From Solirubrobacterales bacterium (lineage in GTDB: Bacteria; Actinomycetota; Thermoleophilia; Solirubrobacterales; 70-9): 64,000 nt of DNA. Location of the stretch: contig SHVA01000008.1 in NCBI GenBank assembly GCA_009691195.1, forward strand, positions 1,785 through 65,784, given 5' to 3'. The notes under the pieces are model-generated. The model had not been told where the DNA came from and did no database searches. It saw only the letters and a program-made list of their open reading frames with translations. Below, piece by piece: positions 6,898 to 53,294 of the stretch. Both the position numbers and the translations under genes were made by a program. Within the stretch, counting starts at the first letter, position 1; every line of letters starts with the position of its first letter.

Positions 6898-7362
6898 GGC
6901 TCAGGTAAGAATCCCTTCATCGGCGCCAACCTCGACCACATCCGCAGCTACTACGAGGCCCTCAACACCGGCGACGCGGACGCCGTCGCCGGGCACTTCA
7001 GCGACGACGCGGTCCACTACTACACGCGCCTGGGGCCCCACCGCGGCCGCGAGATCGCCGACAACGCGGCCTGGGGCGTGGCGCAGGTGGACGGGCAGTG
7101 GCGGCTGGAGCACGGGATCGAGTCCGGGGACGAGGCCGTGATCGAGTGGACGATGACCTGGCGCGACCCGAAGTCAGGTGAGGAGCGCCTCAACCGGGGC
7201 ACCGAGTGGTTCCGGCTTCGCGACGGCAGGATCGCCGAGGTCCGCGCATACCACCACGGGGACCGCAAGAACCCGAGCGGCGACCTGCTCGGCTTCGACC
7301 ACGCCGCCCGCGGCCACACCACGATGGCGGACTGGAAGCCTCCGGCGGGAGGGAAACGATGA
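6881..7362 (+). CDS. SnoaL-like / NTF2-fold protein; N-terminal part has no canonical in-frame start (probable 1-nt indel)
   Basis: The frame of 7078-7362 extends upstream as NPFIGANLDHIRSYYEALNTGDADAVAGHFSDDAVHYYTR, a typical SnoaL N-terminal helix, with no ATG/GTG/TTG back to the stop at 6823. ATG 6881 lies in the neighbouring frame. The stop overlaps the next start (ATGA, 7359-7362). Confidence 0.6.
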
Positions 7363-8537
7363 CGGTGATCAAGGACTCGGGCGAGCGGTCGCTGCCCACT
7401 CCCTTCACCCAGGAGCACCAGGAGCTGCGGGAGTCGATCCGCCGCTTCGTGGAGAGCGAGATCGCACCCCACGTCGACGAGTGGGAGCAGGCGCGCTGGT
7501 TCCCTGACGAGCTCTTCCTGCGCTGCGGCGAGCTCGGCTTCCTGGGCCTCAAGTACCCCGAGGAGCTGGGCGGCCAGGGGGGCGACTACCTCCACGACGC
7601 CGTCTGGGTCGAGGAGCTGGCGCGCTCGGGCGCATCGGGCGGGGTCGCCGCGGGGCTCGGCGCCCACACGGGCATCGCCACCCCGCCCGTGTTCAGGTTC
7701 GGCACCCCCGACCAGCATCAGCGCTTCATCGTCCCGGCGATCAAGGGAGAGCGGATAGGCGCCCTCGGCATCACCGAGCCGGGCGCGGGCTCGGACGTGG
7801 CCGGCATCCGCACCTTTGCCCGCAAGGTGAACGGCGGCTACGTCGTCAACGGCTCCAAGACCTTCATCACCAACGGCGTCCGAGCCGACTTCCTCGTCTG
7901 CGCCCTGAAGACCACCGAGGAGGGCGGCCACCACGGCCTCAGCTTCCTGATCCTCGAGAAGGAGATGCCCGGCTATGAGGTGACGGCCAAGCTCGAGAAG
8001 CTCGGCTGGCACTCGTCAGACACCGGCGAGCTGTCGTTCACCGACGTCGAGGTGCCCGACGAGAACCTGCTCGGCGAGGAGAACGGCGGCTTCTACCTGA
8101 TCATGGCCAACTTCCAGTGGGAGCGGCTGCTGATGGCGCTCGGGGCCGTCGGCGCGATGAAGCGCCTGCTCGAGACGGCGATCGAATACGCCGGCGAGCG
8201 CCAGGCCTTCGGGCGGCCGATCGGCCGCTTCCAGGCGATTCGCCACAAGGTCGCAGAGCTGTCGATCAAGGCCGAGGTCGGGCAGGCGATGACCTACAAC
8301 GCCCTGCGGCTCTTCTGCGAGGGCCAGGACGCCCTCAAGGAGGTGACCCAGGCCAAGCTCTTCACCCAGCGGGCCTGCGTCGAGGTCGCCGACGAGGTCG
8401 TCCAGATCCACGGCGGCTACGGCTACATGCGCGAGTACGGCGTCGAGCGCGCCCTCCGCGACGCCCGCCTGGGCCCGATCGGCGGCGGAACCGACGAGAT
8501 CATGAAGGAGATCCTCGCCAAGCAGTACGGGCTCTAG
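7359..8537 (+). CDS. acyl-CoA dehydrogenase (paralog of 3546-4754)
   Basis: MTVIKDSGERSLPTPFTQEHQELRES...ITEPGAGSDVAGIRT...QIHGGYGYMREY. GGGAGGG RBS, ATGA overlap with the upstream gene. Confidence 0.9.
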   Translation: MTVIKDSGERSLPTPFTQEHQELRESIRRFVESEIAPHVDEWEQARWFPDELFLRCGELGFLGLKYPEELGGQGGDYLHDAVWVEELARSGASGGVAAGLGAHTGIATPPVFRFGTPDQHQRFIVPAIKGERIGALGITEPGAGSDVAGIRTFARKVNGGYVVNGSKTFITNGVRADFLVCALKTTEEGGHHGLSFLILEKEMPGYEVTAKLEKLGWHSSDTGELSFTDVEVPDENLLGEENGGFYLIMANFQWERLLMALGAVGAMKRLLETAIEYAGERQAFGRPIGRFQAIRHKVAELSIKAEVGQAMTYNALRLFCEGQDALKEVTQAKLFTQRACVEVADEVVQIHGGYGYMREYGVERALRDARLGPIGGGTDEIMKEILAKQYGL

Positions 8538-8653: not shown

Positions 8654-10765
8654 ATGGGACAACGACTGAGCTCACTGGCCCGGATCCCGGGTGGCCGCCG
8701 CACCAAGTTCGCCATGATCGGCGTCTGGCTGCTGATCGTGTTCGCGATCGGGCCGCTGTCGAACAAGTTCGAGGACGCCCAGAAGAACGACCCCGCCGAT
8801 TACCTCCCCGGCAACGCCGAGTCGGTCGAGGCCCTGAACAAGGTCAACGAGCTTCCCTCGGGCGAGGAGGCCGACGCGATCACCGTCTTCAATCGCGATG
8901 GTGGGCTGACCGCCGCCGACGCGGCGACCATCGCCAAGGACCGCGCGGAGATCAACGCCAACCGCCGCGAGGGCCAGCGGCCGACCAGGCCCCCCGTCGT
9001 CTCCGACGACAAGACGACGGCCCTCCTGTTCACGCCGATTCAGGTCGAGAACGGCACCAACAAGGCGGGCGAGCGGCTCGTCGACGTCACCGACGACATC
9101 AAGGACACGATCTCCGACAGCCCCGAGGGCCTCGAGGCGAGGGTGACCGGCCCCGCTGGCTTCTCGGCCGATGCGATCGCCGTCTTCAACGACATCAACG
9201 GCACGCTTCTCTACGCGACCGCGCTGCTCGTCCTGATCCTGCTGATCGTCATCTATCGCAGCCCGATCTTCTGGGTGATCCCCTTCTTCTCCGTGCTGAT
9301 CGCCGAGACGGTCACGCGCGGCCTCGGCTACCTGCTTGCGGACGCCGGGGTCACCGTCACCGGCCAGTCGGGCGGGATCCTGCCCGTGCTCGTGTTCGGG
9401 GCGGGGACCGACTACGCCCTGTTGCTCGTCTCGAGATACAGGGAGGAGCTGCGCCATCACGACGACAAGCACGAGGCGATCCTGGTCGCTCTGCGGACGG
9501 CGGGCCCGGCGATCCTCGCCTCCGGCCTGACCGTGATGGCCGCCCTGCTGACGCTGACGCTCGCCGAGGTCAACGGCACCGCCGGCCTCGGGCCGATCGG
9601 GGCCATGGGCGTCTTCATCGCGATGATCTCGATGCTGACCCTGCTGCCGGCCCTGCTGACGCTCGCGGGCAGGCGCGCGTTCTGGCCCTTCATCCCGAGG
9701 GTGGGGACGACCGGCGCCGATGAGACCCACGGGCGCTGGCGCAAGATCGCCGAGTGGGTCGGGCGAGGGCCTCGCCGTGTCTGGATCGGGACGCTCGCCC
9801 TGCTGCTCTTCTTCTGCCTGGGGCTGACCCAGGTCAACACCGACCTCACCAGCGGCAACAGCTTCCGCGGCGACGTCGAGTCGGTCGAGGGCCAGAAGCT
9901 CGTCAATGAGGGCTTCCCGGCCGGGGCCAACGCTCCCACCAACGTCTTCGTCACCGACCCGGCGAAGGTGCCCGCGGTCAGAAGGGCGCTCCAGGGAGCG
10001 CCGGGCGTGGCCGAGGTCGGCGCCATGGAGCGCGGGGAGTCCGGCGTCAACATCCAGGTGACACTCGACCAGGATCCCTACAGCACGGCCGCCTTCGACC
10101 TGATTCCCGGGATTCGTGACCGGGTACACGCGGTCGCCGGCGACGACGTGCTCGTAGGCGGCCCAACCGCCGAGGAACGAGACCTCAGGGTCTCCAGCAC
10201 CCGCGACAACCGGCTGATCGTCCCGATCGCGCTGATCGTCGTCTTCTTCATCCTCGCCGCCCTGCTGAGGGCGGTGGTCGCGCCGCTGGTCCTGATCGGG
10301 ACCGTGATCGTCTCCTTCGCGGCGGCTCTGGGAATCGGAGCCTTCTTCTTCGAGCACGTCTTCGACTTCGCGGGCATGGACCCGTCGCTGCCGTTGTTCG
10401 CCTTCATCTTCCTGGTCGCGCTGGGCATCGACTACAACATCTTCCTGATGGCGCGCGTCCGGGAGGAGACGCTGAAGGAGGGGACGCGGCTCGGCATGAT
10501 CCGCGGGCTGGCCGTCACCGGAGGAGTGATCACCTCGGCCGGCCTGGTCCTGGCGGGGACCTTCTCGGCGCTGGCGGTGCTGCCGCTGGTCGGCCTCACC
10601 GAGATCGGCTTCACGGTCGCGATCGGCGTCCTGATCGACACCTTCATCGTGCGCTCGCTGCTGGTGCCGGCCCTGGTGCTCGAGATCGGCGACCGGGTCT
10701 GGTGGCCCTCCGCGCTGGCAAGGACCGCCGGCGATGACGGGCAGCAGCCCGCCGCCGGGGACTGA
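8654..10765 (+). CDS. MMPL family membrane transporter
   Basis: 703 aa with GAGTDYALLLVSRYREEL and ALGIDYNIFLMARVREE motifs and 12 predicted TM segments. Confidence 0.88.
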   Translation: MGQRLSSLARIPGGRRTKFAMIGVWLLIVFAIGPLSNKFEDAQKNDPADYLPGNAESVEALNKVNELPSGEEADAITVFNRDGGLTAADAATIAKDRAEINANRREGQRPTRPPVVSDDKTTALLFTPIQVENGTNKAGERLVDVTDDIKDTISDSPEGLEARVTGPAGFSADAIAVFNDINGTLLYATALLVLILLIVIYRSPIFWVIPFFSVLIAETVTRGLGYLLADAGVTVTGQSGGILPVLVFGAGTDYALLLVSRYREELRHHDDKHEAILVALRTAGPAILASGLTVMAALLTLTLAEVNGTAGLGPIGAMGVFIAMISMLTLLPALLTLAGRRAFWPFIPRVGTTGADETHGRWRKIAEWVGRGPRRVWIGTLALLLFFCLGLTQVNTDLTSGNSFRGDVESVEGQKLVNEGFPAGANAPTNVFVTDPAKVPAVRRALQGAPGVAEVGAMERGESGVNIQVTLDQDPYSTAAFDLIPGIRDRVHAVAGDDVLVGGPTAEERDLRVSSTRDNRLIVPIALIVVFFILAALLRAVVAPLVLIGTVIVSFAAALGIGAFFFEHVFDFAGMDPSLPLFAFIFLVALGIDYNIFLMARVREETLKEGTRLGMIRGLAVTGGVITSAGLVLAGTFSALAVLPLVGLTEIGFTVAIGVLIDTFIVRSLLVPALVLEIGDRVWWPSALARTAGDDGQQPAAGD

Positions 10766-17610: not shown

Positions 17611-18405
17611 TCAGCGGCGCGCTTCGGCCGCGTCGGGCGCGGGTGAGCCCGGCGGCAGGCCCTCGCGAAGCGCGCGCAGGACCCCGCGGCGCCCGTTCTC
17701 CTCGAGGGCGACGTACATGGCGCGGACGCGGTCGAAGACCTGGTTGGCGACCTCCTGCTGCTCCTCCCGGCTGGGTTCCTCCTTGGCCGGAAAGGCCAGC
17801 GGCTCGCCGTACTGGATCGTGACCTTCGGGAACTGCATCCGCTTCCAGCCGCGGACGTGGGCGGAGCCGTGGATGGCGACCGGGACGACCGGCGCGCCGG
17901 ACTCGAGCGCGAGCTTGCCGACGCCGCGCTTGGGCTCCCCCAGGGCGCCGGTACGCGAGCGCCCTCCCTCGGCGTACATGAGCACCGCGCCTCCGCGTTC
18001 GAGCACGGTGTGGGCCGTCTTGAAGGCCTCGTCGTCGCGGAAGCCCCTGCGGATGGGAAAGACCCCGCCGTGCTTGAGGACGTACTTGATCGCCGGGTTG
18101 GTGAAGAGCTGGGACTTGGCCATGAACTGCACCTTCCGCCGCATGAAAACGGCGGCGAAGAAGTGGTCCATCTGGCTGAAGTGGTTGGGGGTGACGATCA
18201 CGGGGCCGGTGGGCGGCACGTTCTCGACGCCGATCGCCCGAGCCCGGTAGGCGCCGACGGTGGGTGGCGTCAGCACCAGCCTGACGCCGTCGTAGATCCA
18301 GCCGATGCCGTTGCGGGCCGCCTGATGGTACTGGTCGAAGTAGGCAGGGTCCCGGGGGTCCTTGTAGACCTGCGGCTTCAAGTCCTTTGGGTTCACTTCT
18401 GCCAT
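17611..18405 (-). CDS. 1-acyl-sn-glycerol-3-phosphate (lysophospholipid) acyltransferase
   Basis: Acyltransferase motifs NHFSQMDH, FPIRRG and YAEGGRSRTG. Confidence 0.85.
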   Translation of the reverse strand: MAEVNPKDLKPQVYKDPRDPAYFDQYHQAARNGIGWIYDGVRLVLTPPTVGAYRARAIGVENVPPTGPVIVTPNHFSQMDHFFAAVFMRRKVQFMAKSQLFTNPAIKYVLKHGGVFPIRRGFRDDEAFKTAHTVLERGGAVLMYAEGGRSRTGALGEPKRGVGKLALESGAPVVPVAIHGSAHVRGWKRMQFPKVTIQYGEPLAFPAKEEPSREEQQEVANQVFDRVRAMYVALEENGRRGVLRALREGLPPGSPAPDAAEARR

Positions 18406-20231: not shown

Positions 20232-21023
20232 ATGCCGGACAAGCTCGTCCTCGACTACCCGGCCGAGGCCGTCGCACGCCTGACCCTCAACCGGCCGGAG
20301 TCGCGCAACGCGCTCGACCACGAGACGCTCAACGTCCTCGCGGAGGCGATGCCATCCCTCGATCGCGGGATCGAGGTCCGCTGCGTGGTCCTGACCGGAG
20401 CCGGCAAGGCGTTCTCGGCCGGCTACGACATCGCCGGGATCCCGGACGAGAGCTTTGAGCGCGACGCCGAATCGCTGGTCGCACACCCCTTCGCCGCCGC
20501 GCTCGAAGCCGTCGCCGACCACCCCTGGCCGGTGCTGGCGGCGATCAACGGCCACGCGCTCGGCGGCGGGCTCGAGCTGGCGCTGAGCTGCGACCTCCGC
20601 GTCTGCGCCGCCGGCGCCAAGCTGGGGATGCCGCCGGCCAAGCTCGGCCTGATCTATGGCCACACGGGCCTGCAGCGATTCATCGACACGATCGGCGTCC
20701 CGCGCACCAAGGAGCTCTTCCTCACCGGCCGCAACGTGGACGCCGCCCGGGCCGAGGCGATCGGCCTGGTGAACGAGACGGTGGACGACGCCGAGGTCGA
20801 GTCCCATTCCATCGAGCTGGCGACCGAGATCGCCGCCAACGCGCCCCTCTCAATGAAGGGGAACAAGCTGGCGATCGACACGCTCAATTCCTTCAAGCGC
20901 CTGACGCCAGAGCAGGAGCGGGAGCTGATCGAGCTGCGCGAGTTCTGCTTCGCCTCCGAGGACTTCCGCGAGGGCATCCGCGCCTTCAGCGAGAAGCGCA
21001 GGCCCGACTGGAAGGGCCGCTAG
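20232..21023 (+). CDS. crotonase-fold protein (enoyl-CoA hydratase / acyl-CoA decarboxylase-like)
   Basis: MPDKLVLDYPAEAVARLTLNRPESRNAL...GAGKAFSAGYDI...INGHALGGGLELALSCDL...SEDFREGIRAFSEKRRPDW. The ATG is 2 nt after the BCCP stop. Confidence 0.85.
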   Translation: MPDKLVLDYPAEAVARLTLNRPESRNALDHETLNVLAEAMPSLDRGIEVRCVVLTGAGKAFSAGYDIAGIPDESFERDAESLVAHPFAAALEAVADHPWPVLAAINGHALGGGLELALSCDLRVCAAGAKLGMPPAKLGLIYGHTGLQRFIDTIGVPRTKELFLTGRNVDAARAEAIGLVNETVDDAEVESHSIELATEIAANAPLSMKGNKLAIDTLNSFKRLTPEQERELIELREFCFASEDFREGIRAFSEKRRPDWKGR

Positions 21024-21027
21024 GCCC

Positions 21028-23238
21028 TCAGTCCGGCTTCGCGGCTGACTCGACGACCGGGTGCTCGCCGGTGTCCTCGCCGAGGGCGCTACCGCCGCCG
21101 GCGGCCGTCGAGGGCCACCAGATCTTGTCCCCGAGGAGCTCCACGGCGGCGGGGACCATGATCGTCCTCACGATGAACGTGTCCAGGAGGATGCCGAGCG
21201 CAACCATGAAACCGAGGTCGAAGGTGAAGGTGACCGGCAGGGTCATCAGCACCGAGAAGGTGCCGGCGAGGATGATCCCGGCGCTGGTGATGACGGGGCC
21301 GGTGGCCGCCAGGGCCCGCAGCATCCCCTCGCGGGTGCCGTGCTGACGGGCCTCCTCGCGGACCCGGGCCATCAGGAAGATCGTGTAGTCGATCCCAAGC
21401 GCGACGAGGAAGATGAACGCGAAGGTGGGGATCGACGCGTCGATCCCGGCGTCGCCGACGACGAAGCGGATGAAAAGGAATGAGAGGCCGAGCGTGCAGA
21501 GGAAGGACAGGACCACGCTGGCGATCAGGACCAGCGGCGCGATCAGCGCCCGCAGCAGGATCGCGAGGATGATCGCGATCAGCAGCAGCGCCAGCGGGGC
21601 GATCAGCTCGAGGTCGCTCTTGGTGGCCTTGTTGAAGTCGTAGTTGATCGCGGTCGTGCCGCCGACCAGGCCGGTCACCCCGGGCGCGACCTCACTGACG
21701 GAGTCGCGCAGCTCGGGGACGATCTCGAGCGACGAGGACTTCAGCGGGTCGTCCTCCAGCACGAGGTTTATCGAGGCCGTCGAGCCGTCCTCGGAGACCT
21801 GGCCGTTGGGGAAGGCGCGGGCGACCCCGTTGACCCCCCCGAGCTCGGCCACGGCCCTGGTGACGTCGGCGCGTGAGACCTGACCGTTCTCGTCGGTGAC
21901 GAGCACGGTCATCGGGGCGAGGGTGCCCTGCGGGAAGGCGGTGCCGAGCACCTTGAAGCCGTCCACGCTCTCGGTCTGCTTCTTGAAGAAGGTGGTGGTG
22001 CTGTAGTCGACCTTGTAGGCCAGGATCCCGAGGCTGCCCGCTAGGAAGAGGGCGACGGTGACGATCAGGGCCGGCAGCGGCCGCGCCAGGACCCGGTCGC
22101 CGATCCGGCGCCAGAGTCCCTGGCGGGGGACAGCCGCGCCCTCGGGATCGCAGGCGACGGTCCGGCGGCGGGGCCAGAAGCCCGCCCGGCCGAAGATCGT
22201 CAGCAACGCGGGGAGAAGGGTGAGGCCTGCCGTCATCGCGCTGAAGACTCCGATCGCGGCCACCGGGCCGAGCGAGTTGGTGTTGCCGGCGTCCGCGAGC
22301 CTCAGCACCAGCATCGCGAGGGTGACGGTGAGGCCGCTCGCCAGGATCGCCGGGCCCGAGCGGGAGATCGCGTGGGCCATCGCCTCGTGCTTGTCATCGA
22401 GGCGCCGCAGCTCCTCCCTGTATCTCGAGACGAGTAACAGGCAGTAGTCGGTCCCCACCCCGAACATCAGCACGATCAGGATGCTGGTGCTGTTCGATGA
22501 GACCGTCTCGCCCGACTTGGCCAGCAGGTAGATGAACCCCTGGGTGACCGTGTAGGCGAAGAAGACGACTATCAGCGGGGTCACGGCGACGAGCACTGAG
22601 CGGTAGATCACTCCCAGCAGCACCAGCACCAGGATCACCGTGGCGAACAGAAGCTTGGTGTCGATCGAGCCGAAGACCTCCTCGGCGTCGGCGCTGAAGC
22701 CGATGTCGCCGGTGACGTAGACGTCGAGGCCCTCGTCGGTCCGCTCGTCGGTGATGTCGCGGACGTTCGTGCCCCAATCACCGGCGTGCTCGAAGTCGGT
22801 GGGGACGGTCAGCACCGTGTAGGCGACCGAGCCATCCTCGGAGACCAGCTCTGAGGGCGAGCCCGGCGCAAAGGGAACGGCCGGCCTCTGGGTCAGCGGG
22901 ATCTCGTCCTTGCCCGCCGCCTCGATGGCGGCGGCGTTCGCGGCGATCTCGCGCTTGTCGGCGGCGGTGAGCCCGCCGTCGCGCTCGTAGACGATCAGCC
23001 CCTGGGTCGTCTCCCCCGCCTTGAAATCATCGTTGAGGCGCCGCACGACCTCGGTCGACTCGGCGCTCGGCGGCAGGAAGGACTCGGTGTCGTCGGTGGT
23101 CTCGTGGGCGAGCTTGGCGCCCACGGGCATCATCACCACGAAGGCGATCAGCCAGAGGGCGAGCATCGCCCACTTGGTGCGGCGGCCGGCGACGAGTAAG
23201 GCGAGCGTTTTCACGAGTCCGCCAGGGTAGCCACCCAC
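21028..23238 (-). CDS. MMPL family membrane transporter
   Basis: 736 aa with GVGTDYCLLLVSRYREEL and ALGIDYTIFLMARVREE. Closest paralog of 8654-10765. Confidence 0.88.
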   Translation of the reverse strand: MGGYPGGLVKTLALLVAGRRTKWAMLALWLIAFVVMMPVGAKLAHETTDDTESFLPPSAESTEVVRRLNDDFKAGETTQGLIVYERDGGLTAADKREIAANAAAIEAAGKDEIPLTQRPAVPFAPGSPSELVSEDGSVAYTVLTVPTDFEHAGDWGTNVRDITDERTDEGLDVYVTGDIGFSADAEEVFGSIDTKLLFATVILVLVLLGVIYRSVLVAVTPLIVVFFAYTVTQGFIYLLAKSGETVSSNSTSILIVLMFGVGTDYCLLLVSRYREELRRLDDKHEAMAHAISRSGPAILASGLTVTLAMLVLRLADAGNTNSLGPVAAIGVFSAMTAGLTLLPALLTIFGRAGFWPRRRTVACDPEGAAVPRQGLWRRIGDRVLARPLPALIVTVALFLAGSLGILAYKVDYSTTTFFKKQTESVDGFKVLGTAFPQGTLAPMTVLVTDENGQVSRADVTRAVAELGGVNGVARAFPNGQVSEDGSTASINLVLEDDPLKSSSLEIVPELRDSVSEVAPGVTGLVGGTTAINYDFNKATKSDLELIAPLALLLIAIILAILLRALIAPLVLIASVVLSFLCTLGLSFLFIRFVVGDAGIDASIPTFAFIFLVALGIDYTIFLMARVREEARQHGTREGMLRALAATGPVITSAGIILAGTFSVLMTLPVTFTFDLGFMVALGILLDTFIVRTIMVPAAVELLGDKIWWPSTAAGGGSALGEDTGEHPVVESAAKPD

Positions 23239-34039: not shown

Positions 34040-34225
34040 CTACTCCTCGTAGGGCTCGAAGTCGGTCTTGCGGGCGCCGCAGACCGGGCAGAACCAGTCG
34101 TCGGGGATTTCGGCGAAGGCGGTTCCGGGCGGCACGCCGCCGTCGGGGTCGCCCTCCGCGGGGTCGTAGATGAATCCGCAGGAGGTGCAGATCCATAGCT
34201 TTGCGGTCTCGGTGCCGGCCTCCAT
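34040..34225 (-). CDS. rubredoxin
   Basis: [61 protein letters not shown], with two CxxC pairs. ATG 34225 lies inside ORF 34040-34387. Confidence 0.9.
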
Positions 34226-38742: not shown

Positions 38743-38755
38743 GCGGACAGAGTAA

Positions 38756-38803
38756 CGATCTGTCAGACGGAGCGTTAGACAGATCGTCTGACACTTTGTC
38801 AGC
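38756..38803. promoter_or_regulatory. putative TetR operator cluster
   Basis: Perfect 9-bp inverted repeat CGATCTGTC (38756-38764) / GACAGATCG (38778-38786). GTCAGAC (38762-38768) pairs with GTCTGAC (38786-38792). A third, related site TGTCAGC lies at 38797-38803. Confidence 0.55.
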
Positions 38804-38877
38804 AAAGCTGGTAGATTTCCGTGACCCGCAACGTCCGGCAGGCGCCCCGACGCGCGAGCTGCCGAGAGGAGTCGACA

Positions 38878-39804
38878 ATGGCCGAGACACTCGAGGAGCT
38901 TGCTCTCCAGGGCGATCCCGGGACGCTGACCAGCGAGGACCGGGCTTCGAAGATCCAGTTGCTCAACCCCCAGCAGCTCTACGAGCTCTGGGAGAAGCAG
39001 CACTGGCTGGCCCACGAGATCGACTTCTCGGTCGACAGGGAGCAGTGGGCGAACTTCAGCGACGAGGAGCGCGACTACTTCACCTGGGGAATGTCGGGCT
39101 TCTTCATCGGCGAGGAGCGGGTCACGACCCAGTTCTCGGGCCTCCTGATGGCCTACGAGGACGAGTCGGAGGAGGCCTTCCTCGCCACGCAGCAGGTCGA
39201 TGAGGCGCGCCACACCCAGTTCTTCGACCGCTTCTACCGCGAGGTGATCGGCATCGACGACCCCAAGTGGGAGACGAGGCTCGCCCGCGTCCGCGAGGAG
39301 CTCAACGACTCCTTCGCAGAGCTCTTCGACAAGGCCCTGGTCGAGGCCAACCAACGGCTGATTTCCGACCCCTCGAGCATCGAGGCCAAGGTCGACTACG
39401 TGACGATCTACCGCATGGTGATCGAGGGGACGCTCGCCCTCACCGGCCAGTACACGATGACCGACTACCTCGAGAAGAACGAGCTGCTCCCCGGCTTCGT
39501 CGAGGGCTTCAACAAGGTCGCCCGCGATGAGCACCGCCACGTGGCCTACGGCACCTGGTTCCTGAAGCAGAAGTGCGGCTCCGACCCGGAGCTCGGCGCG
39601 CTGATGCAGGCGCGTCTGCAGGAGCTGCTGCCGGTCGCCGGCGGGGTACTCGTCCCCAAGGGCGCCGACCCCAACGACTGGGAGATGCTCGGCTACACCG
39701 CGGCCGAGATCAACGAGTTCGCCTTCAAGGCCCTGACGCGGAGGCTGAAGGCGATCGGGGTACCGCTCGTCGCAGAACACGCGGGCAACGGGGTGGCGGT
39801 CTGA
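38878..39804 (+). CDS. R2-like (ribonucleotide reductase small-subunit fold) di-metal carboxylate oxidase, radical Tyr absent
   Basis: ATG after GAGGAG. Ligand pattern FFIGEE ... VDEARH ... MVIEGT ... RDEHRH. Phe sits 4 residues after the first His (RHTQFF). Confidence 0.75.
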
Positions 39805-39986
39805 TGACCGCCACCCTCGAGGTCACCGCCTGGATCTGTGAGTCCTGCGGCTTCGTCTACGATCCCGCCGACGGTGACCCGGACGGCGGCATCCCCGCGG
39901 GCACCGCCTTCGCCGAGATCCCCGACGACTGGTTCTGCCCCGTCTGCGGGGCCCGCAAGAAGGACTTCGTCCCCTACAGCGGCTAG
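39804..39986 (+). CDS. rubredoxin
   Basis: [60 protein letters not shown]. The ATG shares one base with the R2-like stop (TGATG). Confidence 0.9.
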
Positions 39987-39996
39987 CCCGGCGCGG

Positions 39997-40749
39997 CTAG
40001 CGCCTCTTGTGCTTCTTGGGCGGCCTCGGGAGCTTGAGCGCGCCTGAAACGGCGGCCTCGGCCCGATTGCCCGCGAGATCGGAGATCGCCATGCCCAGCT
40101 TCAGCTTGAGACGGTGGCCGCGGTGCTTCTGCAGGGCGGTGGCCTTGGATGCGAGCGCGCGGGCTCCCCGCTTGGTCAGCGGGAGGGTCACGAACCGCTT
40201 GCCGGCCGAGAGGTAGGTGCGCTCGGCCGTCCCGACCTCGACACCTGCGCTGACGGCGCTGAGGGCGATGTCCGCGGCCTCGCTCGGGTTGACCACCAGC
40301 TGAAGCCTGCGCTTGCCTAGAACCGCCTTGGTCGTGGTGCTGCGCAGCGAGACCGCCCCGGTGGGAGGTATCACGTCGGGCGGCAGCGGCTCGCCCTCGG
40401 CGGTGACCTCGAGGGTGGCCGTCATCTCGGGGTAGCCGGGGTCGTGAAAGAGGTAGGTCCCCTCGCTGAGGAACGGCGCGCCGCGCACGAGGCGCTCGCC
40501 GCCCGCCGCAATCGCCGGCGCCGAGAACAGCGGCGCATCGTCCAGGTCGAGGTCATCGGAGGCGACCGCGTGCTCGAGGAAGGGGTCCCGGTTGGCGAAG
40601 GTGACCAGCGCCCCCTGGTCGATCGTGTAGGTCGGCAGCGCGTACTCCTGGAGGAACACGGCCTTGATCTGGGTGCCGGCGGAGGCGCCGGCGGGGGCGG
40701 CGAGCAGCAGCAGGCAGGCCGCCGCGAGGACGATGTGCGGGCGCTTCAT
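39997..40749 (-). CDS. secreted cupredoxin-like protein with degenerate copper site
   Basis: Signal peptide MKRPHIVLAAACLLLLAAPAGASA. TYTIDQGALVTFANRDPFLEHAV...[20 protein letters not shown] resembles a plastocyanin-like fold, but no Cys is present. Basic C-terminal tail. Confidence 0.55.
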   Translation of the reverse strand: MKRPHIVLAAACLLLLAAPAGASAGTQIKAVFLQEYALPTYTIDQGALVTFANRDPFLEHAVASDDLDLDDAPLFSAPAIAAGGERLVRGAPFLSEGTYLFHDPGYPEMTATLEVTAEGEPLPPDVIPPTGAVSLRSTTTKAVLGKRRLQLVVNPSEAADIALSAVSAGVEVGTAERTYLSAGKRFVTLPLTKRGARALASKATALQKHRGHRLKLKLGMAISDLAGNRAEAAVSGALKLPRPPKKHKRR

Positions 40750-41489: not shown

Positions 41490-42206
41490 GTGAAGAGTAG
41501 GCCACCCGGCGGAGGGACCTGGACGGGAGTGCTGGTGACGCTGGGCGGCATCGCGCTCCTGGCTGCGTGCGTGCTCGCCATTCCGCCCCTTCGCGACGCC
41601 TTCCAGAACGCGATCAGCGGCGACCACGACGCGGTGCGCGAGGACCTTCAGAAGCCGGCCGGCGTGGCCCTCGTCATCGGTTTGGCGATCATCCACACGA
41701 TCGTCTGGTACCCGGCCGAGATCCTCGACACGGCCGCCGGCTACGTCTACGGCTTCTGGCCGGCGCTGCCGCTGATCATGGCCTGCTGGGTCGCCTCAGG
41801 GCTGCTCGCGTACATGATCGGCCGCCACGCCGCCCGCCCGCTGCTCTACCGGCTGGTCGGGGAAGAGCGCTTCGAGCGGCTCGAAGCCCTGGTCGAGCGC
41901 GGCGGCGTCACCTTCCTGCTGGTGGCTCGCCTGGTCCCGATCGTCCCCTTCAGCCTCACCGGCTACGTCGCCGGAGCCGCGCGGGTGCCGCTGGGCCGCT
42001 TCACGTGGACCACCGCCGTCGGCTACCTGCCGATCACGGCCTTCTTCATCTACGTCGGAAGCAGGCTCGAGGAGTTGTCACCGACGGACCCGGTGATCCT
42101 GCTGGGCACCGGCGCCCTGCTGCTCTCGGTGCTCGGCGTCCGCTTCCTGACGCCCCGGTTCACTCACGAGCGCGCCGACAGGGCCGACGCGCGCAGGGGC
42201 AGCTAG
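41490..42206 (+). CDS. TVP38/TMEM64 (DedA/VTT-domain) membrane protein
   Basis: GTG 41490 lies inside ORF 40854-42206. ...YPAEILDTAAGYVYGFWPAL...LVARLVPIVPFSLTGYVAGAARVPLGRF. Confidence 0.7.
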   Translation: MKSRPPGGGTWTGVLVTLGGIALLAACVLAIPPLRDAFQNAISGDHDAVREDLQKPAGVALVIGLAIIHTIVWYPAEILDTAAGYVYGFWPALPLIMACWVASGLLAYMIGRHAARPLLYRLVGEERFERLEALVERGGVTFLLVARLVPIVPFSLTGYVAGAARVPLGRFTWTTAVGYLPITAFFIYVGSRLEELSPTDPVILLGTGALLLSVLGVRFLTPRFTHERADRADARRGS

Positions 42207-43297
42207 CCGGCCGGCGCCGGATCCGGCGCCAGCGGCTCGATCGCTGCGAGCCGCCGCGCGAGATCCTCGAGGTCCTGCGCTCGCTCCTCGAGCAGCCGCT
42301 CGGCCGCCTCGTCGAGTCCCCGCAGAGCGGCCGAGCTCGCATCATCGAGCCCGAACCCCGGCGGCAGCGCGATCTGGAAACGGTAGTAGCGAGGGCCCCT
42401 CCCCATCTGCCCGGCGTCGGGCAGTGGTGCGCCGGGCTCGTGGTTGAGCAGAATCTCCGACCAATGGTCCGCGGCATCTGACTGGCCGTCGAGGAACGCC
42501 GCCACCAGCGGCGGCTCCCCGTCGCGCGGCAGGATCCAGCCGAGCTGTCCCCAGCGCCTGACCCGCCGCTGCTCGTATGGCGTCTGGTGCTGGCCGGTTC
42601 CGAGCGAGACGACCAGCAGGTCGTCTGTCGTCAGCGCGGAGCGGCCCTCGCCCACGCGCTTGAGCGCCTCCACGACCGCGGCCACCGTCGGGTTGGCCGA
42701 GAAGACCCCGCCGTCGACCAGCGCGCGGGAGCCGACGCCGTGCGAGGGAAAGTAGGTCGGCGCCGCTGCCGTCGCCAGCGCTGCGTCGATCATCGGTACG
42801 TCGCGGTCGGGCGAGTCGCGGGCGCGCCAGCGCTTGAAGAAGTGCGGCCCCGGCTCGGCCATGTCGTAGGAGGTGACGACCACCTCGCGGAGAGCCTCGG
42901 AGAGGCGGGCGTCGCCGATCCGGTCCCTCAGCACCCGCTCGAGCTCGTCTGCCGAGTAGCGGGGCCCAAGCCAGCCGAAGCCGGTCAGGAGCCGCCGCAG
43001 GAGGCCGACGTGGAAGATGGCCGGCCCGTCGTCGACGTAGAAGCTGGCGAGGTCCTCGCCGCTGAGCCGGGGCCGGCTCGAGCCGCTGGATCGGGGGGCC
43101 GCCAGCCCAAGGGCCAAGAGCCCGCCGGTCGAGGTGCCCGCCAGCAGCTGGAAGCAGTCCGCGATCCGCCTCTCCTGCCCGGCCTCGGCGCTGACCAGCT
43201 GCTCGAGCCGGGCGATCACCCGCGCGGCGATCAGGCCGCGAATGCCGCCTCCGTCAACGGAGAGGATGCGAAAGGGTGCGCCTGCGCCGGGGCTCAA
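42203..43297 (-). CDS. patatin-like phospholipase
   Basis: FRILSVDGGGIRG, AGTSTGG and VDGGVFSANP motifs. TTG 43297 overlaps the stop of the upstream NTF2-like gene (TTGA) and follows AGGAG. Confidence 0.8.
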   Translation of the reverse strand: MSPGAGAPFRILSVDGGGIRGLIAARVIARLEQLVSAEAGQERRIADCFQLLAGTSTGGLLALGLAAPRSSGSSRPRLSGEDLASFYVDDGPAIFHVGLLRRLLTGFGWLGPRYSADELERVLRDRIGDARLSEALREVVVTSYDMAEPGPHFFKRWRARDSPDRDVPMIDAALATAAAPTYFPSHGVGSRALVDGGVFSANPTVAAVVEALKRVGEGRSALTTDDLLVVSLGTGQHQTPYEQRRVRRWGQLGWILPRDGEPPLVAAFLDGQSDAADHWSEILLNHEPGAPLPDAGQMGRGPRYYRFQIALPPGFGLDDASSAALRGLDEAAERLLEERAQDLEDLARRLAAIEPLAPDPAPAG

Positions 43298-48245: not shown

Positions 48246-50072
48246 ATGGAGATCGCATCCGCGCCAGCCGACACGGCCCCCGCGGGCGCCCAGACGGGCA
48301 CCCAGAGCAAGACGATGGCCGACCTGCTGCCGCTGGCCGCCAAGCGCCACGCGGACCTGAAGGCGGTCACCTACAAGGACGAGTCGGGAAGCTGGGCCTC
48401 GGTCTCCTACGCCGAGATGGGCGAGATCGTCAAACGCCTCTCGCTCGGCCTGATCGACCTCGGGGTAGGCCTCGGCGACAAGGTCTCGATCCTCGGGAAC
48501 ACCCGCCCGGAGTGGACCTACTTCGACTTTGCCGCGCTCAGCGCGGGCGCAACCGTCGCACCGATCTACCAGACCAACTCTGCCGAGGAGTGCCAGTACG
48601 TGCTCGAGAACTCCGACGCCAAGCTGGTGATCGTCGAGGACGCCGAGCAGCTCGAGAAGGTGCGGGCCGTCCGCCACAAGCTCCCCAAGCTGGAGCAGGT
48701 GATCCTGATGGAGGGGTCGAGCGAGGACGCGATCTCGACGGACCAGCTCGTGGAGCGCGGCTCGGGACGCAGCGACGCCGAGTGGGAGGAGCGCTGGAGC
48801 TCAGTCAGCCCGGACGACATCTGCACCTTGATCTACACCTCGGGCACGACGGGGCCTCCCAAGGGCTGCATCATCTCCCACGGGAACTACCGCGCGATGG
48901 TCTCGATGGCCCTCGAGCAGAGCGTGCTCGAGCAGGGCTCGACCACCTACCTCTTCCTTCCCCTCGCGCACTCCTTCGCGATGTTGATCCAGCTTCTCAG
49001 CGTTGACCTCGGCGGCAACATCGCCTACTGGGAGCGCGACCCGCTCAAGATCGTCCCGAACCTGACCGAGGTGCGGCCCGAGTACTTCCCGTCCGTCCCC
49101 CGGATCTTCGAGAAGATCTACACCACCGCCACCGCCGGCGTCGAGAAGGACGGCGGGCTCAAGAAGGTGGTCTTCAACCGGGCGATCGGGGTGGGGCGCA
49201 AGGCGCGCGAGCGCGAGCGGGCCGGCAAGCCGCTCGGCTTCCTGCTCCGCAAGCAGTACGAGTTCGCCGACAAGCAGGTCCTCTCCAAGATCAGGGGCCT
49301 GTTCGGCGGCAACATCCGCAACTGCGTCACCGGCGCAGCGCCGATCAATCCGGAGATCCTGCGCTTCTTCGACGCTGCCGGCGTCCTCATCCTCGAGGGG
49401 TGGGGCATGACCGAGACGTCCACCGCGGCGTCGATCTCGCGGCCGGACGCGTTCAAGTTCGGGACCATCGGCCGTCCCTTCAGGGGCTGCGAGATCAAGA
49501 TCGCCGACGACGGGGAGATCCTCGTCAAGGGCCCGAACGTGTTCCAGGGCTACTACAAGAACGAGGCGGCGACGAAGGAGGCGATCGTCGACGGCTGGCT
49601 CCACACCGGCGACGTCGGAGAGATCGACTCCGACGGCTACATCAAGATCACCGGCCGCAAGAAGGACATCATCATCACCGCGGGCGGCAAGAACATCACC
49701 CCGGCCAACCTCGAGGCCGAGATCAAGCAGAGCCAATGGGTCTCGCAGTGCGTGGTGATCGGCGATCGGCGACCCTACCTGGTGGCGCTGATCACGCTCG
49801 ACATCGAGGAGTGCGCGAAGCTCGCCGAGGAGAAGGCCTGGCCGGCCGGCTCGGCGGAGCTGGCCAAGAACCCCGGGATGCGCGAGCTGGTCCAGGAGCA
49901 CCTCGACAAGGTCAACGAGAAGTTCGCCCGGGTCGAGCAGGTGAAGAAGTTCGAGCTGCTCCCCGAGGACCTCTCACAGGAGAGCGGCGAGCTGACTCCG
50001 ACCCTGAAGGTCAAGCGCAACATCGTCGCCGACAGGTACGACGCGCAGGTCGAGGGGCTGTACGCGGGCTAG
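48246..50072 (+). CDS. long-chain fatty-acid-CoA ligase (AMP-dependent synthetase)
   Basis: IYTSGTTGPPKGC, EGWGMTE, GWLHTGDVGEIDSDGYIKITGRKKD and GKNITP motifs. The start may instead be ATG 48315. Confidence 0.88.
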   Translation: MEIASAPADTAPAGAQTGTQSKTMADLLPLAAKRHADLKAVTYKDESGSWASVSYAEMGEIVKRLSLGLIDLGVGLGDKVSILGNTRPEWTYFDFAALSAGATVAPIYQTNSAEECQYVLENSDAKLVIVEDAEQLEKVRAVRHKLPKLEQVILMEGSSEDAISTDQLVERGSGRSDAEWEERWSSVSPDDICTLIYTSGTTGPPKGCIISHGNYRAMVSMALEQSVLEQGSTTYLFLPLAHSFAMLIQLLSVDLGGNIAYWERDPLKIVPNLTEVRPEYFPSVPRIFEKIYTTATAGVEKDGGLKKVVFNRAIGVGRKARERERAGKPLGFLLRKQYEFADKQVLSKIRGLFGGNIRNCVTGAAPINPEILRFFDAAGVLILEGWGMTETSTAASISRPDAFKFGTIGRPFRGCEIKIADDGEILVKGPNVFQGYYKNEAATKEAIVDGWLHTGDVGEIDSDGYIKITGRKKDIIITAGGKNITPANLEAEIKQSQWVSQCVVIGDRRPYLVALITLDIEECAKLAEEKAWPAGSAELAKNPGMRELVQEHLDKVNEKFARVEQVKKFELLPEDLSQESGELTPTLKVKRNIVADRYDAQVEGLYAG

Positions 50073-50648: not shown

Positions 50649-51914
50649 CTACTCCGCGGCGGACCCCGACTGCCGCAACAGCGCGCCGGTGGTCTGCTCG
50701 AGCACGCGGCGCCAGACCGAGATCTCCTCGGTCTCAACGGTGTCGAGGACCTGTTCCACCCTGCGGCCGGAGATCTCGATGCCGTGGCGGGCTGCGATCT
50801 CGCGGTAGCGCTCGTAGTCGCGAGCCAGCTTCACCGTGACCGACTCGAAGCCGTGCTTGGCGATCCTGAGGCGGGACGAATAGTCGAGGATCGAGGTGCC
50901 GAACATGAGCTCATCGTCGTGCTCCGGCTCGATCAGGATGATGTCCACGTCGGGGAAGCGCTGGTTCCAGGACTCGATCGCGAGGTGGAGGCGATTGTGG
51001 GCCATCATCCGGAAGGCCTGGTTGCCGATCGCGGGCATGCCGAGGTCGGAGACCCGCCTCACGCGCGACCCGAACACGGTCGGGATCCGCTTCTCGAAGT
51101 TGTTGACGTAGGGGACCAGGGGATTGACCACGACGATGAACTTGGCGCCGGCCTCGACGGCTACGTCCACGTTCGTGGTCGAGGCGATACCGCCGTCCAT
51201 CAGCTGCCGCCCCTTGAGCTCATAGGGCTCATAGACCACCGGCAGCGCGGTGGAGGCCGCGACGGCGCGGGAGATCGGGACGTCGTCCCAGTCGTCCTTC
51301 CCGAGCACGACCCGCTCGGCGGTGTCGAGGTCGGTCGCCGTGATCAACAGCTCACGATCGAGCTCGCGGAAATCGTTGCTGCGATCGGGGTCGGAGAGGA
51401 CCTCGCGCATGTACGTCTCGATGCCCCGGTTGTGGTAGATCCCGGACGGCATCCCCTCCGCGATCCCCATCGCGACGTCCATCAGCGAGATCTCGCCGAC
51501 GTGGGAGGCGACGTGCCTCAGGGTCGCGACCACGCGCAGGGGCAGCTTCGCCACGCGCCCGGCGAAGCCACGGTAGTTGGGCCGCAACAGCGTCCGCAAC
51601 GCCGGGTCCTCGAACGGGGAGGGAAGCGCCTTGTTGAGGACCCTCATCATCTTCTCGGGGGTGACGCCGTTGGCGACCATGCTGGCGACGAATGAGCCCG
51701 CGGAGGTGCCGACGTAGACATCGAAGTCGTTGACGGTCCGGTTCACGGCGAGCAGGTCGAACGCTCGCAGCGCGCCGATCTCGTAGACCCCACCGGTGAA
51801 GCCGCCGCCGCCCAGCACCAGAGCCGTCTTGGCGGCGCCGCGCCGTGAGCGCCCGCGGATTCGCGAGGCTCGAGCCCTCCCGTCCGGGCCGTCGAGCTGG
51901 ACCACCTTCCCCAT
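50649..51914 (-). CDS. patatin-like phospholipase
   Basis: ATG 51914 lies inside ORF 50649-52295. LVLGGGGFTGGVYEIG, GTSAGS and LMDGGI motifs. Confidence 0.82.
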   Translation of the reverse strand: MGKVVQLDGPDGRARASRIRGRSRRGAAKTALVLGGGGFTGGVYEIGALRAFDLLAVNRTVNDFDVYVGTSAGSFVASMVANGVTPEKMMRVLNKALPSPFEDPALRTLLRPNYRGFAGRVAKLPLRVVATLRHVASHVGEISLMDVAMGIAEGMPSGIYHNRGIETYMREVLSDPDRSNDFRELDRELLITATDLDTAERVVLGKDDWDDVPISRAVAASTALPVVYEPYELKGRQLMDGGIASTTNVDVAVEAGAKFIVVVNPLVPYVNNFEKRIPTVFGSRVRRVSDLGMPAIGNQAFRMMAHNRLHLAIESWNQRFPDVDIILIEPEHDDELMFGTSILDYSSRLRIAKHGFESVTVKLARDYERYREIAARHGIEISGRRVEQVLDTVETEEISVWRRVLEQTTGALLRQSGSAAE

Positions 51915-52001
51915 GACCTCGAGCGTATAGCAGGCTGGTGGGCCGGCCAGGACGAGGTCGCGTCGAGGCGCGGCGCTACCCTGCCGCCGCCGACCTGTTG
52001 T

Positions 52002-53294
52002 ATGGCCGTGGCCCCAAACGAGACCCGATCGACCCTGCGCGCGCTCGCCGCTGCTGCGCTCCTGGCCCTTGTGGCCGGACCGCTCAGCGCCGCGTCGGCG
52101 TCCGCGGCGGCCCCCGACAGGCCCGGGCACACCTCGGAAGCCGTCTCTAAGTCGGGCTCGGCGACGAGCGCCGTCTCGGGCTCGGCGCTGCGCCGAGGGC
52201 TGCTGCGGCAGCTTCGCTACGGCGGAGGGGCCGGCGGAACCTGGGTTCAGGACCTCAGCAGCGGCAAGTCGCTGTTCAAGCGCTCGGACCGGCATGCGCT
52301 GATCATCGCCTCGAACATGAAGCTCTTCACCACGGCGACGGCGCTCGGCCGGCTGGGGCCCAAGACAAGGCTGCCGACGGAGCTGTGGGCCGCCGGGGAG
52401 CTGGATGGCAGCGTGGTCCGGGGCGACCTGATCCTCCGGGGTGGAGGCGACCCGCTGCTGGACGGCAAGGGTGTGGCCAAGCTCGGCGCCAAGCTTGTCT
52501 CCTCGGGGGTCAAGCGGATAACCGGCCGCCTGCTCTACGACGACAGCGTCTTTGACCGCAAGCCCTACCCGCCACAGCAGGGGATCACCGGCGGGCCGTA
52601 CCTGGGCCGCCTCTCAGGCCTCTCATTCCTCAAGGGAGCGCCGAGGCAGCCTGCTCGAAGCGCGGCCCGGGCGCTGATCTCCAATCTGCGAAAGCGGGGC
52701 GTGAAGCTGCGCGAGGGCACCGAGGCGCGAGCGACCAAGCCGGGCCTGCCCAACCGGGAGCTGCTCAACCAGGTCCGCTCGGCCACCATCCGGGAGCTGA
52801 TCGCCGCCACCAACGTCCCCTCCGACAACTTCCTCGCCGAGATGCTGATCAAGGCGATCGGCGCCGGCGTCTCCGGGCGCGGCACCACGGCCGCAGGAGG
52901 CAAGCTCGTCGCGGCCTTCGCCCGCAAGCGAGGCGCCGACGTCAGCGCCCTCAACGGCTCGGGCCTCAGCCGCGGCGTCCGCGCCTCGCCCCGCTCGATC
53001 GGGAGGCTGCTGGCCTCGATGCAGGCCGACGAGAAGCTGAGCGGCCCCTACCTCGACTCGCTCGCGGTCGCGGGCCGGACCGGCACCCTTTACGACCGCA
53101 TGCGGGGCACCGCGGCCGAGGGCAACTGCCGCGGCAAGACGGGGACGCTGACGGGCGACAGCGCCCTCTCGGGCTACTGCATGGTCGGCGGCCGAGTGCT
53201 CGCCTTCTCGATCCTGATGAACGGCGTGGACATCGACCGCGCCCACGTCGCCCAGGACCGGATGGCCGCGCTGATCGCGCGCTACCGGCCCTAG
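52002..53294 (+). CDS. dacB: D-alanyl-D-alanine carboxypeptidase/endopeptidase (PBP4, peptidase S13)
   Basis: Signal peptide. SNMK (SxxK), NGSGLS (SxN) and KTGT motifs. Confidence 0.85.
   Translation: MAVAPNETRSTLRALAAAALLALVAGPLSAASASAAAPDRPGHTSEAVSKSGSATSAVSGSALRRGLLRQLRYGGGAGGTWVQDLSSGKSLFKRSDRHALIIASNMKLFTTATALGRLGPKTRLPTELWAAGELDGSVVRGDLILRGGGDPLLDGKGVAKLGAKLVSSGVKRITGRLLYDDSVFDRKPYPPQQGITGGPYLGRLSGLSFLKGAPRQPARSAARALISNLRKRGVKLREGTEARATKPGLPNRELLNQVRSATIRELIAATNVPSDNFLAEMLIKAIGAGVSGRGTTAAGGKLVAAFARKRGADVSALNGSGLSRGVRASPRSIGRLLASMQADEKLSGPYLDSLAVAGRTGTLYDRMRGTAAEGNCRGKTGTLTGDSALSGYCMVGGRVLAFSILMNGVDIDRAHVAQDRMAALIARYRP

Follow-up and report, generated by a model that had tools for sequence, protein, structure and literature searches.

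A rubredoxin gene overlapping the gene of a divergent R2lox-like oxidase in Thermoleophilia: a candidate natural electron donor

A 64,000-nucleotide chromosomal segment of a soil actinobacterium of the Solirubrobacterales (contig SHVA01000008.1 of assembly GCA_009691195.1, 69.7% G+C; hereafter the window) contains a gene for an R2lox-like ferritin-fold dimetal oxidase, on the plus strand at 38878..39804, whose stop codon shares a base with the start codon of a rubredoxin gene. R2L is used here as shorthand for this protein and for its homologues in the same clade; its closest public relatives come from metagenome-assembled genomes (MAGs) of Solirubrobacterales and other Thermoleophilia. We propose that the two genes form a TetR-controlled bicistron encoding an O2-activating lipid or alkane oxidase that is re-reduced by the rubredoxin. 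We consider this reading probable. The sequences show the family placement and conserved residues of R2L, the gene overlap and its recurrence among relatives, the operator and promoter motifs in front of the pair, and the association of R2lox-type genes with SCP2, alcohol dehydrogenase (ADH) and ferredoxin genes; the metals, the substrate, the electron transfer and an unlinked reductase are inferred.

Structures of R2lox proteins have been available since 2009, and R2L carries the complete set of dimetal ligands of this family. These are E79 (FFIGE79E), E109/H112 (VDE109ARH112), E183 (MVIE183GT) and E218/H221 (RDE218HRH221), spaced by 30, then 71-74, then 35 residues, and all six align on the ligands of Mtb and Gk R2lox with Glu, not Asp, in first place. 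The alignment register to Gk numbering was fixed via the sequence of a V72I mutant among the PDB matches. It places V82 and Y178 of R2L on Val72 and Tyr162, the ether cross-link pair of GkR2lox, and the conserved G78 and A187 on the Gk channel residues G68 and A171. The radical-Tyr position (H112+4) is occupied by Phe116 (RHTQFF), and no conserved Tyr appears there after alignment. Conservation was evaluated in 79 Thermoleophilia homologues and in 100 full-length representatives of 50%-identity clusters. Phe at this position is invariant in the former and present in 86 of the latter, while the nine signature residues together (in order E-V-E-H-F-Y-E-E-H) are invariant in 79/79 homologues and intact in 66 of the 100 representatives.

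Profile and structure comparisons point in the same direction. Pfam recognizes the generic R2 domain PF00268 alone (1.3e-17), and the five best NCBIfam models are all R2-like ligand-binding oxidase models, scoring 92-156 bits. Models of the ribonucleotide reductase (RNR) beta subunit reach at most 41.5 bits (NF005550, cut-off 309), their cut-offs spanning 237-525. In a phmmer search of the PDB the best matches are Mtb R2lox (3ee4, 8e-28) and the GkR2loxI series (2e-25 for 4hr0), further matches being SeR2lox from Saccharopolyspora (7QBP) and both Sulfolobus R2lox proteins including SaR2lox; true R2 proteins follow at 1e-7 or worse. This is further supported by an AlphaFold (AF2) model built from 47 homologues (pLDDT 78, pTM 0.77). 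The top 33 chains of a Foldseek search of the PDB with this model are all R2lox, with TM-scores of 0.60-0.68 normalized to the query and 0.64-0.74 normalized to the target, and R2c structures and other RNR proteins rank below them.

R2L is nevertheless set apart from the curated R2lox families. It stays below every NCBIfam R2lox cut-off (156.5 bits versus 194 for NF006200, and 92-128 versus 274-346 for the other four models), whereas a canonical Rhodococcus R2lox clears NF006199 with 569.7 bits against a cut-off of 286. Its sequence identity is 33% to the Mtb, 34% to the Gk and 29% to the Rhodococcus protein. In addition, Gln191 (window 39448-39450) stands at Gk position 175, which is Tyr in both Gk and Mtb R2lox; Gln is found here in 77 of the 79 clade members and in 73 of the 100 representatives. 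Because of the sub-threshold scores and the Gln at the Tyr175 position we file R2L as a divergent R2lox-like branch and not as a canonical member. Gln191 marks a large uncharacterised 'Gln-type' branch that lies outside the curated models and fills the Thermoleophilia.

Homologues of R2L are publicly annotated as 'ribonucleotide-/ribonucleoside-diphosphate reductase beta' subunit or chain. R2 proteins of RNR have a conserved C-terminal tail that carries a pathway Tyr and binds the alpha subunit, whose gene is usually adjacent. The R2L C-terminus lacks Tyr, and homologues differ from one another in its length and sequence. We found no class I RNR large subunit (NrdA/NrdE) in the window or in the Pfam table covering ±10 kb, the rest of the genome lying outside our view. 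The called window genes of at least 550 codons all encode other proteins, namely three MMPL proteins, two MFS proteins, one AMP-binding enzyme and LigA, and no alpha subunit occurs among the recurrent neighbour families scanned in 80 related loci. Thus, the sequence evidence supports an R2lox-like protein in every catalytic hallmark tested and not an RNR subunit, and it is almost certain that thousands of soil Thermoleophilia proteins named 'RNR beta chain' do not belong to RNR either. An earlier note on this DNA had read the ligand pattern with its leading Glu, the Phe in place of the radical Tyr and the absence of NrdA/NrdE from the 64 kb, and all three readings are confirmed; placement against R2lox and RNR-beta profiles likewise comes out on the R2lox side. 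Its assignment to the R2lox-type ligand-binding oxidases stands with respect to the best sequence and fold matches and the Val/Tyr pair, and has to be qualified by the NCBIfam cut-offs and the Gln in place of Tyr175.

The protein encoded by the second gene is a canonical rubredoxin with the signature C12-E-S-C15-G and C45-P-V-C48-G (CxxCG...CPxCG), the Fe(Cys)4 motif of this domain of about 50 aa. It matches PF00301 at 2.9e-22 and 78.9 bits (cut-off 23), scores slightly below the cut-off of the NCBIfam model RubredRD (82.8 versus 90 bits) and is strongly acidic, with a net charge of -7. At the junction gtcTGATGacc, base 39804 is common to the R2L stop codon and the rubredoxin start codon, as the earlier note had observed.

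We then asked how widespread this coupling is, using the best 80 species-representative GTDB genome loci (R2L 55-75% identical, all Thermoleophilia), in which neighbouring genes were called with a GC3-based caller that reproduces database gene calls and were clustered into families. A 475-kb metagenome contig (L001) serves as an extra locus, and 80 metagenome loci encoding proteins about 40% identical represent sister clades. A rubredoxin gene lies directly 3' of R2L on the same strand in eight of the 80 GTDB loci (L008, L024, L029, L031, L034, L043, L048, L050) and in L001. A stop/start overlap could be read at 8 of the 10 rubredoxin junctions, in the form TGATG in the window and L008 and as ATGA/GTGA in L001, L029, L031, L034, L048 and L050. 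In L043 the rubredoxin start seems to overlap by a few bases, an overlap deduced indirectly.

In the remaining locus, on a long-read MAG, R2L and rubredoxin lie within one 388-aa open reading frame (ORF) with no intervening stop (L024:5995-7161). This could be a unique fusion or an indel artefact, and we do not count it as Rosetta-stone evidence. Its nearest relative is a 92% identical protein of 314 aa, and since a search of 5.8 billion proteins with the L024 product returned no R2L-rubredoxin fusion among the best 120 matches, all about 300 aa long with PF00268 only, the fusion is taken as unconfirmed. The rubredoxin motif is also absent from the long members (at least 340 aa) among the top 150 representatives of 50%-identity clusters.

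The rubredoxin-bearing loci fall into at least two major subclades of a neighbour-joining tree. A divergent TetR gene is present in 9 of the 10. As their outer flanks differ, conservation is limited to the TetR<>R2L-rubredoxin unit. The scattered pattern fits an ancestral cassette that was repeatedly lost as well as a unit that was repeatedly gained. With one to three rubredoxin genes per genome, the chance that one of them is the downstream neighbour of a given gene is, by our estimate, roughly 1 in 2000, and the rubredoxin sits always 3' of R2L and never of its other neighbours. Thus, the adjacency, surveyed across species, is not unique to this genome. The proposal in the earlier note that the oxidase has its own dedicated donor is borne out insofar as the overlapping rubredoxin recurs; it has to be restricted to certain lineages, as about 90% of relatives lack the arrangement, and the electron transfer it implies stays conditional.

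A single residue stands out in the comparison of rubredoxin-linked and unlinked R2L. Lys213 (window 39514-39516), five residues before E218, is Lys in 7 of 9 linked and in 9 of 68 unlinked proteins. The acidic rubredoxin could dock at this residue, a lead in which phylogeny is uncontrolled.

Loci syntenic with the window differ in what follows R2L on its 3' side. There is rubredoxin in the window, L001 and L008, nothing in L007, and a GMC oxidoreductase in L002 (6981-8642) and L005/L006 (6992-8689). The GMC family includes the alcohol dehydrogenase AlkJ. The second rubredoxin of the window keeps its syntenic position in L002 and L007, both of which are without the coupled copy.

The features of the locus are collected in Table 1. 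ATG 38878 is preferred as the R2L start because the homologues all begin with MAETLE; a longer product from GTG 38821 is unlikely. The palindrome proper, with 15-nt arms, spans 38755-38787 within the 135-bp spacer between the TetR and R2L genes, and the whole element at 38755..38793 is the probable binding site of the TetR protein. Palindromes of the type TGACA(C)-n-(G)TGTCA occur in the TetR-R2L spacers of most relatives that have the regulator, and a TetR/EthR_C regulator lies upstream of and divergent from R2L in 34 of the 80 related loci. An Rfam scan of 33.8-40.3 kb yielded no riboswitch and no leader RNA.

Table 1. Features of the R2L-rubredoxin locus and further lipid-related genes (window coordinates)
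Feature	Position	Strand	Remarks
R2L, R2lox-like ferritin-fold dimetal oxidase, 308 aa	38878..39804	+	ATG 38878, TGA 39802-39804; PF00268, R2lox models, PDB, Foldseek
Rubredoxin, 60 aa	39804..39986	+	ATG 39804-39806, TAG 39984-39986; PF00301
Shine-Dalgarno-like GAGAGGAG	38864..38871	+	strong; 6 nt 5' of ATG 38878; sequence reading
Sigma-70-like promoter CTGACA-18-TAGATT, TG-extended	38788..38817	+	5' of the R2L-rubredoxin unit; 1 found versus 0.1 expected; sole one in region
Operator-like palindrome ACGATCTGTCAGACG/CGTTAGACAGATCGT plus CGTCTGACA repeat	38755..38793	.	repeat/half-site overlaps the -35 hexamer
Terminator-like hairpin GGCGC-ggcta-GCGCC plus T-rich tail	39990..40004	+	weak; 4 nt 3' of the rubredoxin stop
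TetR-family regulator, EthR-type C-terminal domain, 223 aa	38071..38742	-	TetR_N 1.9e-13, EthR_C 7e-17; divergent
DUF6941 protein, 145 aa	37619..38056	-	between TetR and SCP2; its family has 3 members, each from a copy of this one locus
SCP2 lipid-carrier protein, 139 aa	37137..37556	-	SCP2 1.9e-06
Fe-containing alcohol dehydrogenase (Fe-ADH), 401 aa	35935..37140	-	Fe-ADH 3.4e-43; start overlaps SCP2 stop codon
Second rubredoxin, 61 aa, monocistronic	34040..34225	-	72% identical to the coupled copy; 4.7 kb upstream
MMPL genes	669-2765, 8654-10765, 21028-23214		
Acyl-CoA DH genes	3546-4754, 7359-8537		
ECH	20232-21023		
Acyltransferase	17611-18396		
Patatin genes	42203-43297, 50649-52130		
AMP-binding	48246-50072		

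The genes beyond the regulator suggest the kind of substrate. The SCP2 protein is likely an accessory that delivers a hydrophobic substrate, and the Fe-ADH may oxidise an alcohol product. Synteny with L002 and L007 extends to both genes and to the next one on the minus strand, which encodes a 228-aa unknown protein; with L022 it covers SCP2 and Fe-ADH. At 44% identity (9e-45), the window SCP2 resembles the SCP2 from the R2lox operon on the R. opacus plasmid pROB01 more closely than the two oxidases resemble each other. Long fused relatives of R2L measure 400-750 aa, and 8 of 10 long representatives tested are R2lox-SCP2 fusions (P0129, P0147, P0159, P0162, P0170, P0180, P0239, P0252); in P0195 the R2lox-like domain is fused to an alpha/beta hydrolase. 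G78/A187, the SCP2 fusions and the SCP2 neighbour hint indirectly at a lipid ligand for R2L. As DUF6941 is seen only in this organism's locus, it is probably not part of the system.

Canonical R2lox genes occur in comparable settings. The Rhodococcus plasmids pROB01 (R. opacus, L089), pRB11 (L091) and pR8L1 (L092) carry an R2lox operon, in two gene orders, comprising NDMA-ADH, an NAD(P)/FAD oxidoreductase, the ferredoxin FdxA, R2lox, an aldehyde dehydrogenase (ALDH), SCP2 and a fatty-acid-CoA ligase. Taken together, these genes resemble an entire terminal-oxidation pathway equipped with a dedicated electron chain. Mycobacterium pMyong1 has TetR, R2lox, a hypothetical gene, an acyl-CoA ligase and an ADH, and Geobacillus pHTA426 has MFS, R2lox and an adenylate-forming enzyme. 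The haloarchaeal plasmid copies of R2lox examined have helix-turn-helix and AAA ATPase neighbours and no redox partner. Because R2lox on the Rhodococcus plasmids adjoins an FAD reductase and a ferredoxin, a dedicated electron carrier beside R2lox appears, by analogy, to be a recurring theme of which rubredoxin would be the Thermoleophilia version.

The function, substrate and redox partner of R2lox are still undetermined (PMC9314684). C16/C18 hydroxy fatty acids accompany the Gk and Sa proteins through purification, and R2lox has a conserved basic patch on its surface to which a partner might bind (PMC9314684). In haloarchaea, hexadecane induces the R2lox genes, which lie in clusters with genes for ferredoxin and sterol carriers (PMC9314684). 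The clustering of R2lox with a one-electron carrier has thus been noticed before and is not new. According to a single report from 2024, crude lysate containing GkR2loxI removes C10-C22 alkanes with NADH, the electron supply being ascribed to unspecified host oxidoreductases (PMC10867098). In the literature searched we found no paper containing both 'R2lox' and 'rubredoxin', and the R2lox-like/rubredoxin partnership appears to be unreported. A lipid substrate is suggested by the SCP2 fusions and the 44% SCP2 match together with the co-purified fatty acids, the GkR2loxI alkane report and the GMC oxidoreductase that takes the place of rubredoxin.

From these data the following mechanism can be envisaged. 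R2L would assemble a Mn/Fe (or Fe/Fe) centre, the identity of the metals being predicted, and activate O2. A hydrophobic channel would hold a long aliphatic chain, which might belong to an alkane, a fatty acid or some related lipid, and the enzyme would oxidise this substrate, most likely by hydroxylation. After each turnover the metals would be in the +3/+3 state, and the co-translated acidic rubredoxin would supply two successive single electrons to restore +2/+2. An NAD(P)H-dependent reductase from another locus would recharge the rubredoxin. SCP2 would ferry the hydrophobic substrate or product, and the resulting alcohol would be oxidised by the Fe-ADH. The TetR protein would act as a repressor that occupies the palindrome at the -35 box until a hydrophobic ligand releases it.

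Several observations weigh against a rubredoxin-driven oxidase of this kind. The ±10 kb Pfam table lists no rubredoxin reductase (Pyr_redox-type), and a scan of further window ORFs gave none either. The adjacent rubredoxin is missing in 72 of the 80 close relatives, and the 80 sister-clade loci contain no adjacent rubredoxin or ferredoxin, with one rubredoxin-motif ORF 1.2 kb downstream in L116. As most relatives have no linked rubredoxin, the enzyme can work with unlinked donors. The linked rubredoxin is a lineage-specific arrangement and a minority state, not a rule of the family. The single-frame version in L024 found no counterpart among the database matches described above. In many Thermoleophilia relatives R2L lies among housekeeping genes such as plsX, yceD, glyA, sua5 and the aro genes; this speaks against a catabolic alkane operon as the general role, and constitutive modification of lipids is no less plausible than alkane catabolism. 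Finally, redox cycling of GkR2loxI yielded no product (PMC9314684), so that catalytic turnover of R2lox is not firmly established.

The latter result also favours the best-placed alternative, in which the rubredoxin is a maturation or maintenance factor that gives the electron or electrons required a single time for Mn/Fe cofactor assembly and Tyr-Val ether cross-link formation, or that rescues over-oxidised or mis-metallated protein. The order of an R2-family gene followed by a gene for a small Fe-S protein mirrors E. coli nrdAB-yfaE, and the 2Fe-2S ferredoxin YfaE reportedly (Wu et al. 2007, listed in PMC8463856) reduces the diferric cluster of E. coli R2. Most clade members do without a linked rubredoxin, and, according to two reports, formation of the R2lox cross-link uses oxidising equivalents from O2 activation (PMC6399176, PMC6060897). 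Stoichiometric translational coupling, however, exceeds the need for a factor that acts once per protein lifetime, and the Rhodococcus reductase and ferredoxin chain, with its ADH, ALDH and fatty-acid-CoA ligase, points to sustained turnover. We regard the maturation role as unlikely.

Also improbable, and next in standing, is an adjacency of operonic convenience, in which a general redox or oxidative-stress rubredoxin shares the R2L promoter and the two products do not interact directly. The window encodes two rubredoxins that are 72% identical, so that neither need be specific, and 72 of 80 related species do without an adjacent copy. A superoxide dismutase (SOD) gene lies 1 kb downstream and is nearby and syntenic in many relatives; yet it is on the opposite strand and is there with or without rubredoxin. 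Mere convenience is also hard to reconcile with overlaps at eight junctions in lineages 57-75% identical with differing outer flanks, and with a rubredoxin that follows R2L and none of the other neighbours. That R2L is a class Ic-type RNR small subunit, with its alpha subunit encoded elsewhere and the rubredoxin as cofactor reductant, is very improbable, since the Glu/Phe signature common to R2c and the public annotation as a 'ribonucleotide-diphosphate reductase subunit beta' are outweighed by the RNR-beta scores (at most 41.5 bits, versus 92-156 for R2lox models), the rank of R2c structures below all 33 R2lox chains, the invariant R2lox-specific Val/Tyr pair, the lack of an alpha subunit in the window or among recurrent neighbours of the 80 loci and a variable Tyr-less C-terminus that conflicts with an alpha-binding tail.

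We therefore retain the oxidase re-reduced by its co-translated rubredoxin as the preferred reading. A narrower version of it is speculative, and we put it forward tentatively: the Thermoleophilia R2L with an AlkG2-like rubredoxin could be a soluble, AlkB-independent hydroxylase of long-chain alkanes or alkyl lipids, the Gln191 branch being a Mn/Fe monooxygenase that turns over with rubredoxin as its natural reductant. For Thermoleophilum album, a member of this class that lives obligately on C13-C20 alkanes, an 'AlkG2-type rubredoxin' and an AlmA-like flavoprotein are reported, with no AlkB listed (PMC6741124). If true, the soluble hydroxylase would explain this 'alkane-type' rubredoxin without AlkB and would make R2L the first R2lox whose physiological chain of electron transfer is defined.

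More generally, the pair points to rubredoxin as a plausible natural source of electrons for the R2lox enzymes, for which partner and substrate are unsettled. As a minimal natural system for reconstituting turnover it bears on the turnover, substrate and reductant of R2lox. By analogy, the cassette, the Rhodococcus operons and the SCP2 fusions argue that the R2lox family may consist of multi-turnover lipid oxygenases and not of self-modifying proteins. The finding will not surprise a specialist, as it is a variation, in about 10% of the clade, on R2lox genes beside one-electron carriers, yet it is useful.

The neighbourhoods of R2L in other lineages show further associations. In one subclade (L009-L013, L016, L027, L035 and L042) R2L, with or without TetR, lies between plsX and yceD, a neighbourhood of fatty-acid and phospholipid synthesis. 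In a Thermoleophilaceae subclade (L030, L032, L040, L051, L052, L055, L059) a convergent flavin-reductase gene of the HpaC/StyB type overlaps the 3' end of R2L by 20 nt (for example L040:6890-7381, minus strand), and a gene for an FAD_binding_2 flavoprotein comes next; this flavin reductase may be an alternative electron source. A CMAS-type methyltransferase adjoins R2L in some Thermoleophilia subclades. A tandem, shorter R2lox-like paralogue of 242-260 aa, about 30% identical, is found at L015:6917-7699, L022:6914-7642, L023:6911-7678 and L024:7179-7952; the L015 copy has the full ligand/Val/Tyr/Phe signature by eye, and its best NCBIfam models are R2lox (87.6 bits versus a cut-off of 194). 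Baekduia-type loci (L045, L046, L049, L057, L069, L072) carry a conserved protein of about 300 aa 3' of R2L on the same strand (for example L072:5618-6547), which has no Pfam, NCBIfam or PDB match. In a lower-GC sister clade with about 55% G+C (L097-L100, L105, L120, L127) a fatty-acid-CoA-ligase homologue lies directly 5' of the R2lox-like gene on the same strand. The 64-kb window itself is unusually rich in genes for lipid transport and lipid metabolism (Table 1).

Compared with known systems, R2L shares with the solved R2lox proteins the R2 fold, the E/ExxH/E/ExxH ligands with Glu first, the Phe, the Val/Tyr pair and the Gly/Ala channel residues, and its locus shares with canonical R2lox loci a TetR neighbour (Mycobacterium pMyong1) and SCP2 and ADH neighbours (Rhodococcus). 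It differs from them in its identity of only 29-34%, its sub-cut-off scores and Gln191 in place of Tyr175. The Rhodococcus operons likewise place R2lox beside a small one-electron Fe-S carrier, with an SCP2 of the same subfamily (44%) and an ADH. In contrast, a [4Fe-4S]-type ferredoxin serves as the carrier there and has a reductase of its own, overlaps between the genes are absent, and the operons encode the full pathway from alcohol to acyl-CoA, whereas the window cluster is without reductase, ALDH and ligase. In E. coli nrdAB-yfaE an R2-family gene also directly precedes the gene of a small Fe-S protein; there, however, YfaE is a ferredoxin that maintains a true RNR cofactor, while the window pairs a rubredoxin with a non-RNR protein. 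In the AlkB/AlkG/AlkT system rubredoxin is the obligate one-electron shuttle to a dimetal alkane hydroxylase, and actinobacteria have alkB-rubA-rubB-tetR clusters, so that here, too, the gene of a dimetal O2-activating hydroxylase is followed by rubredoxin and a TetR-family regulator is present at the locus. The two enzymes have no homology, R2L being a soluble ferritin-fold protein with a carboxylate-bridged centre and AlkB a histidine-rich membrane protein, and the window genes scanned include no rubredoxin reductase.

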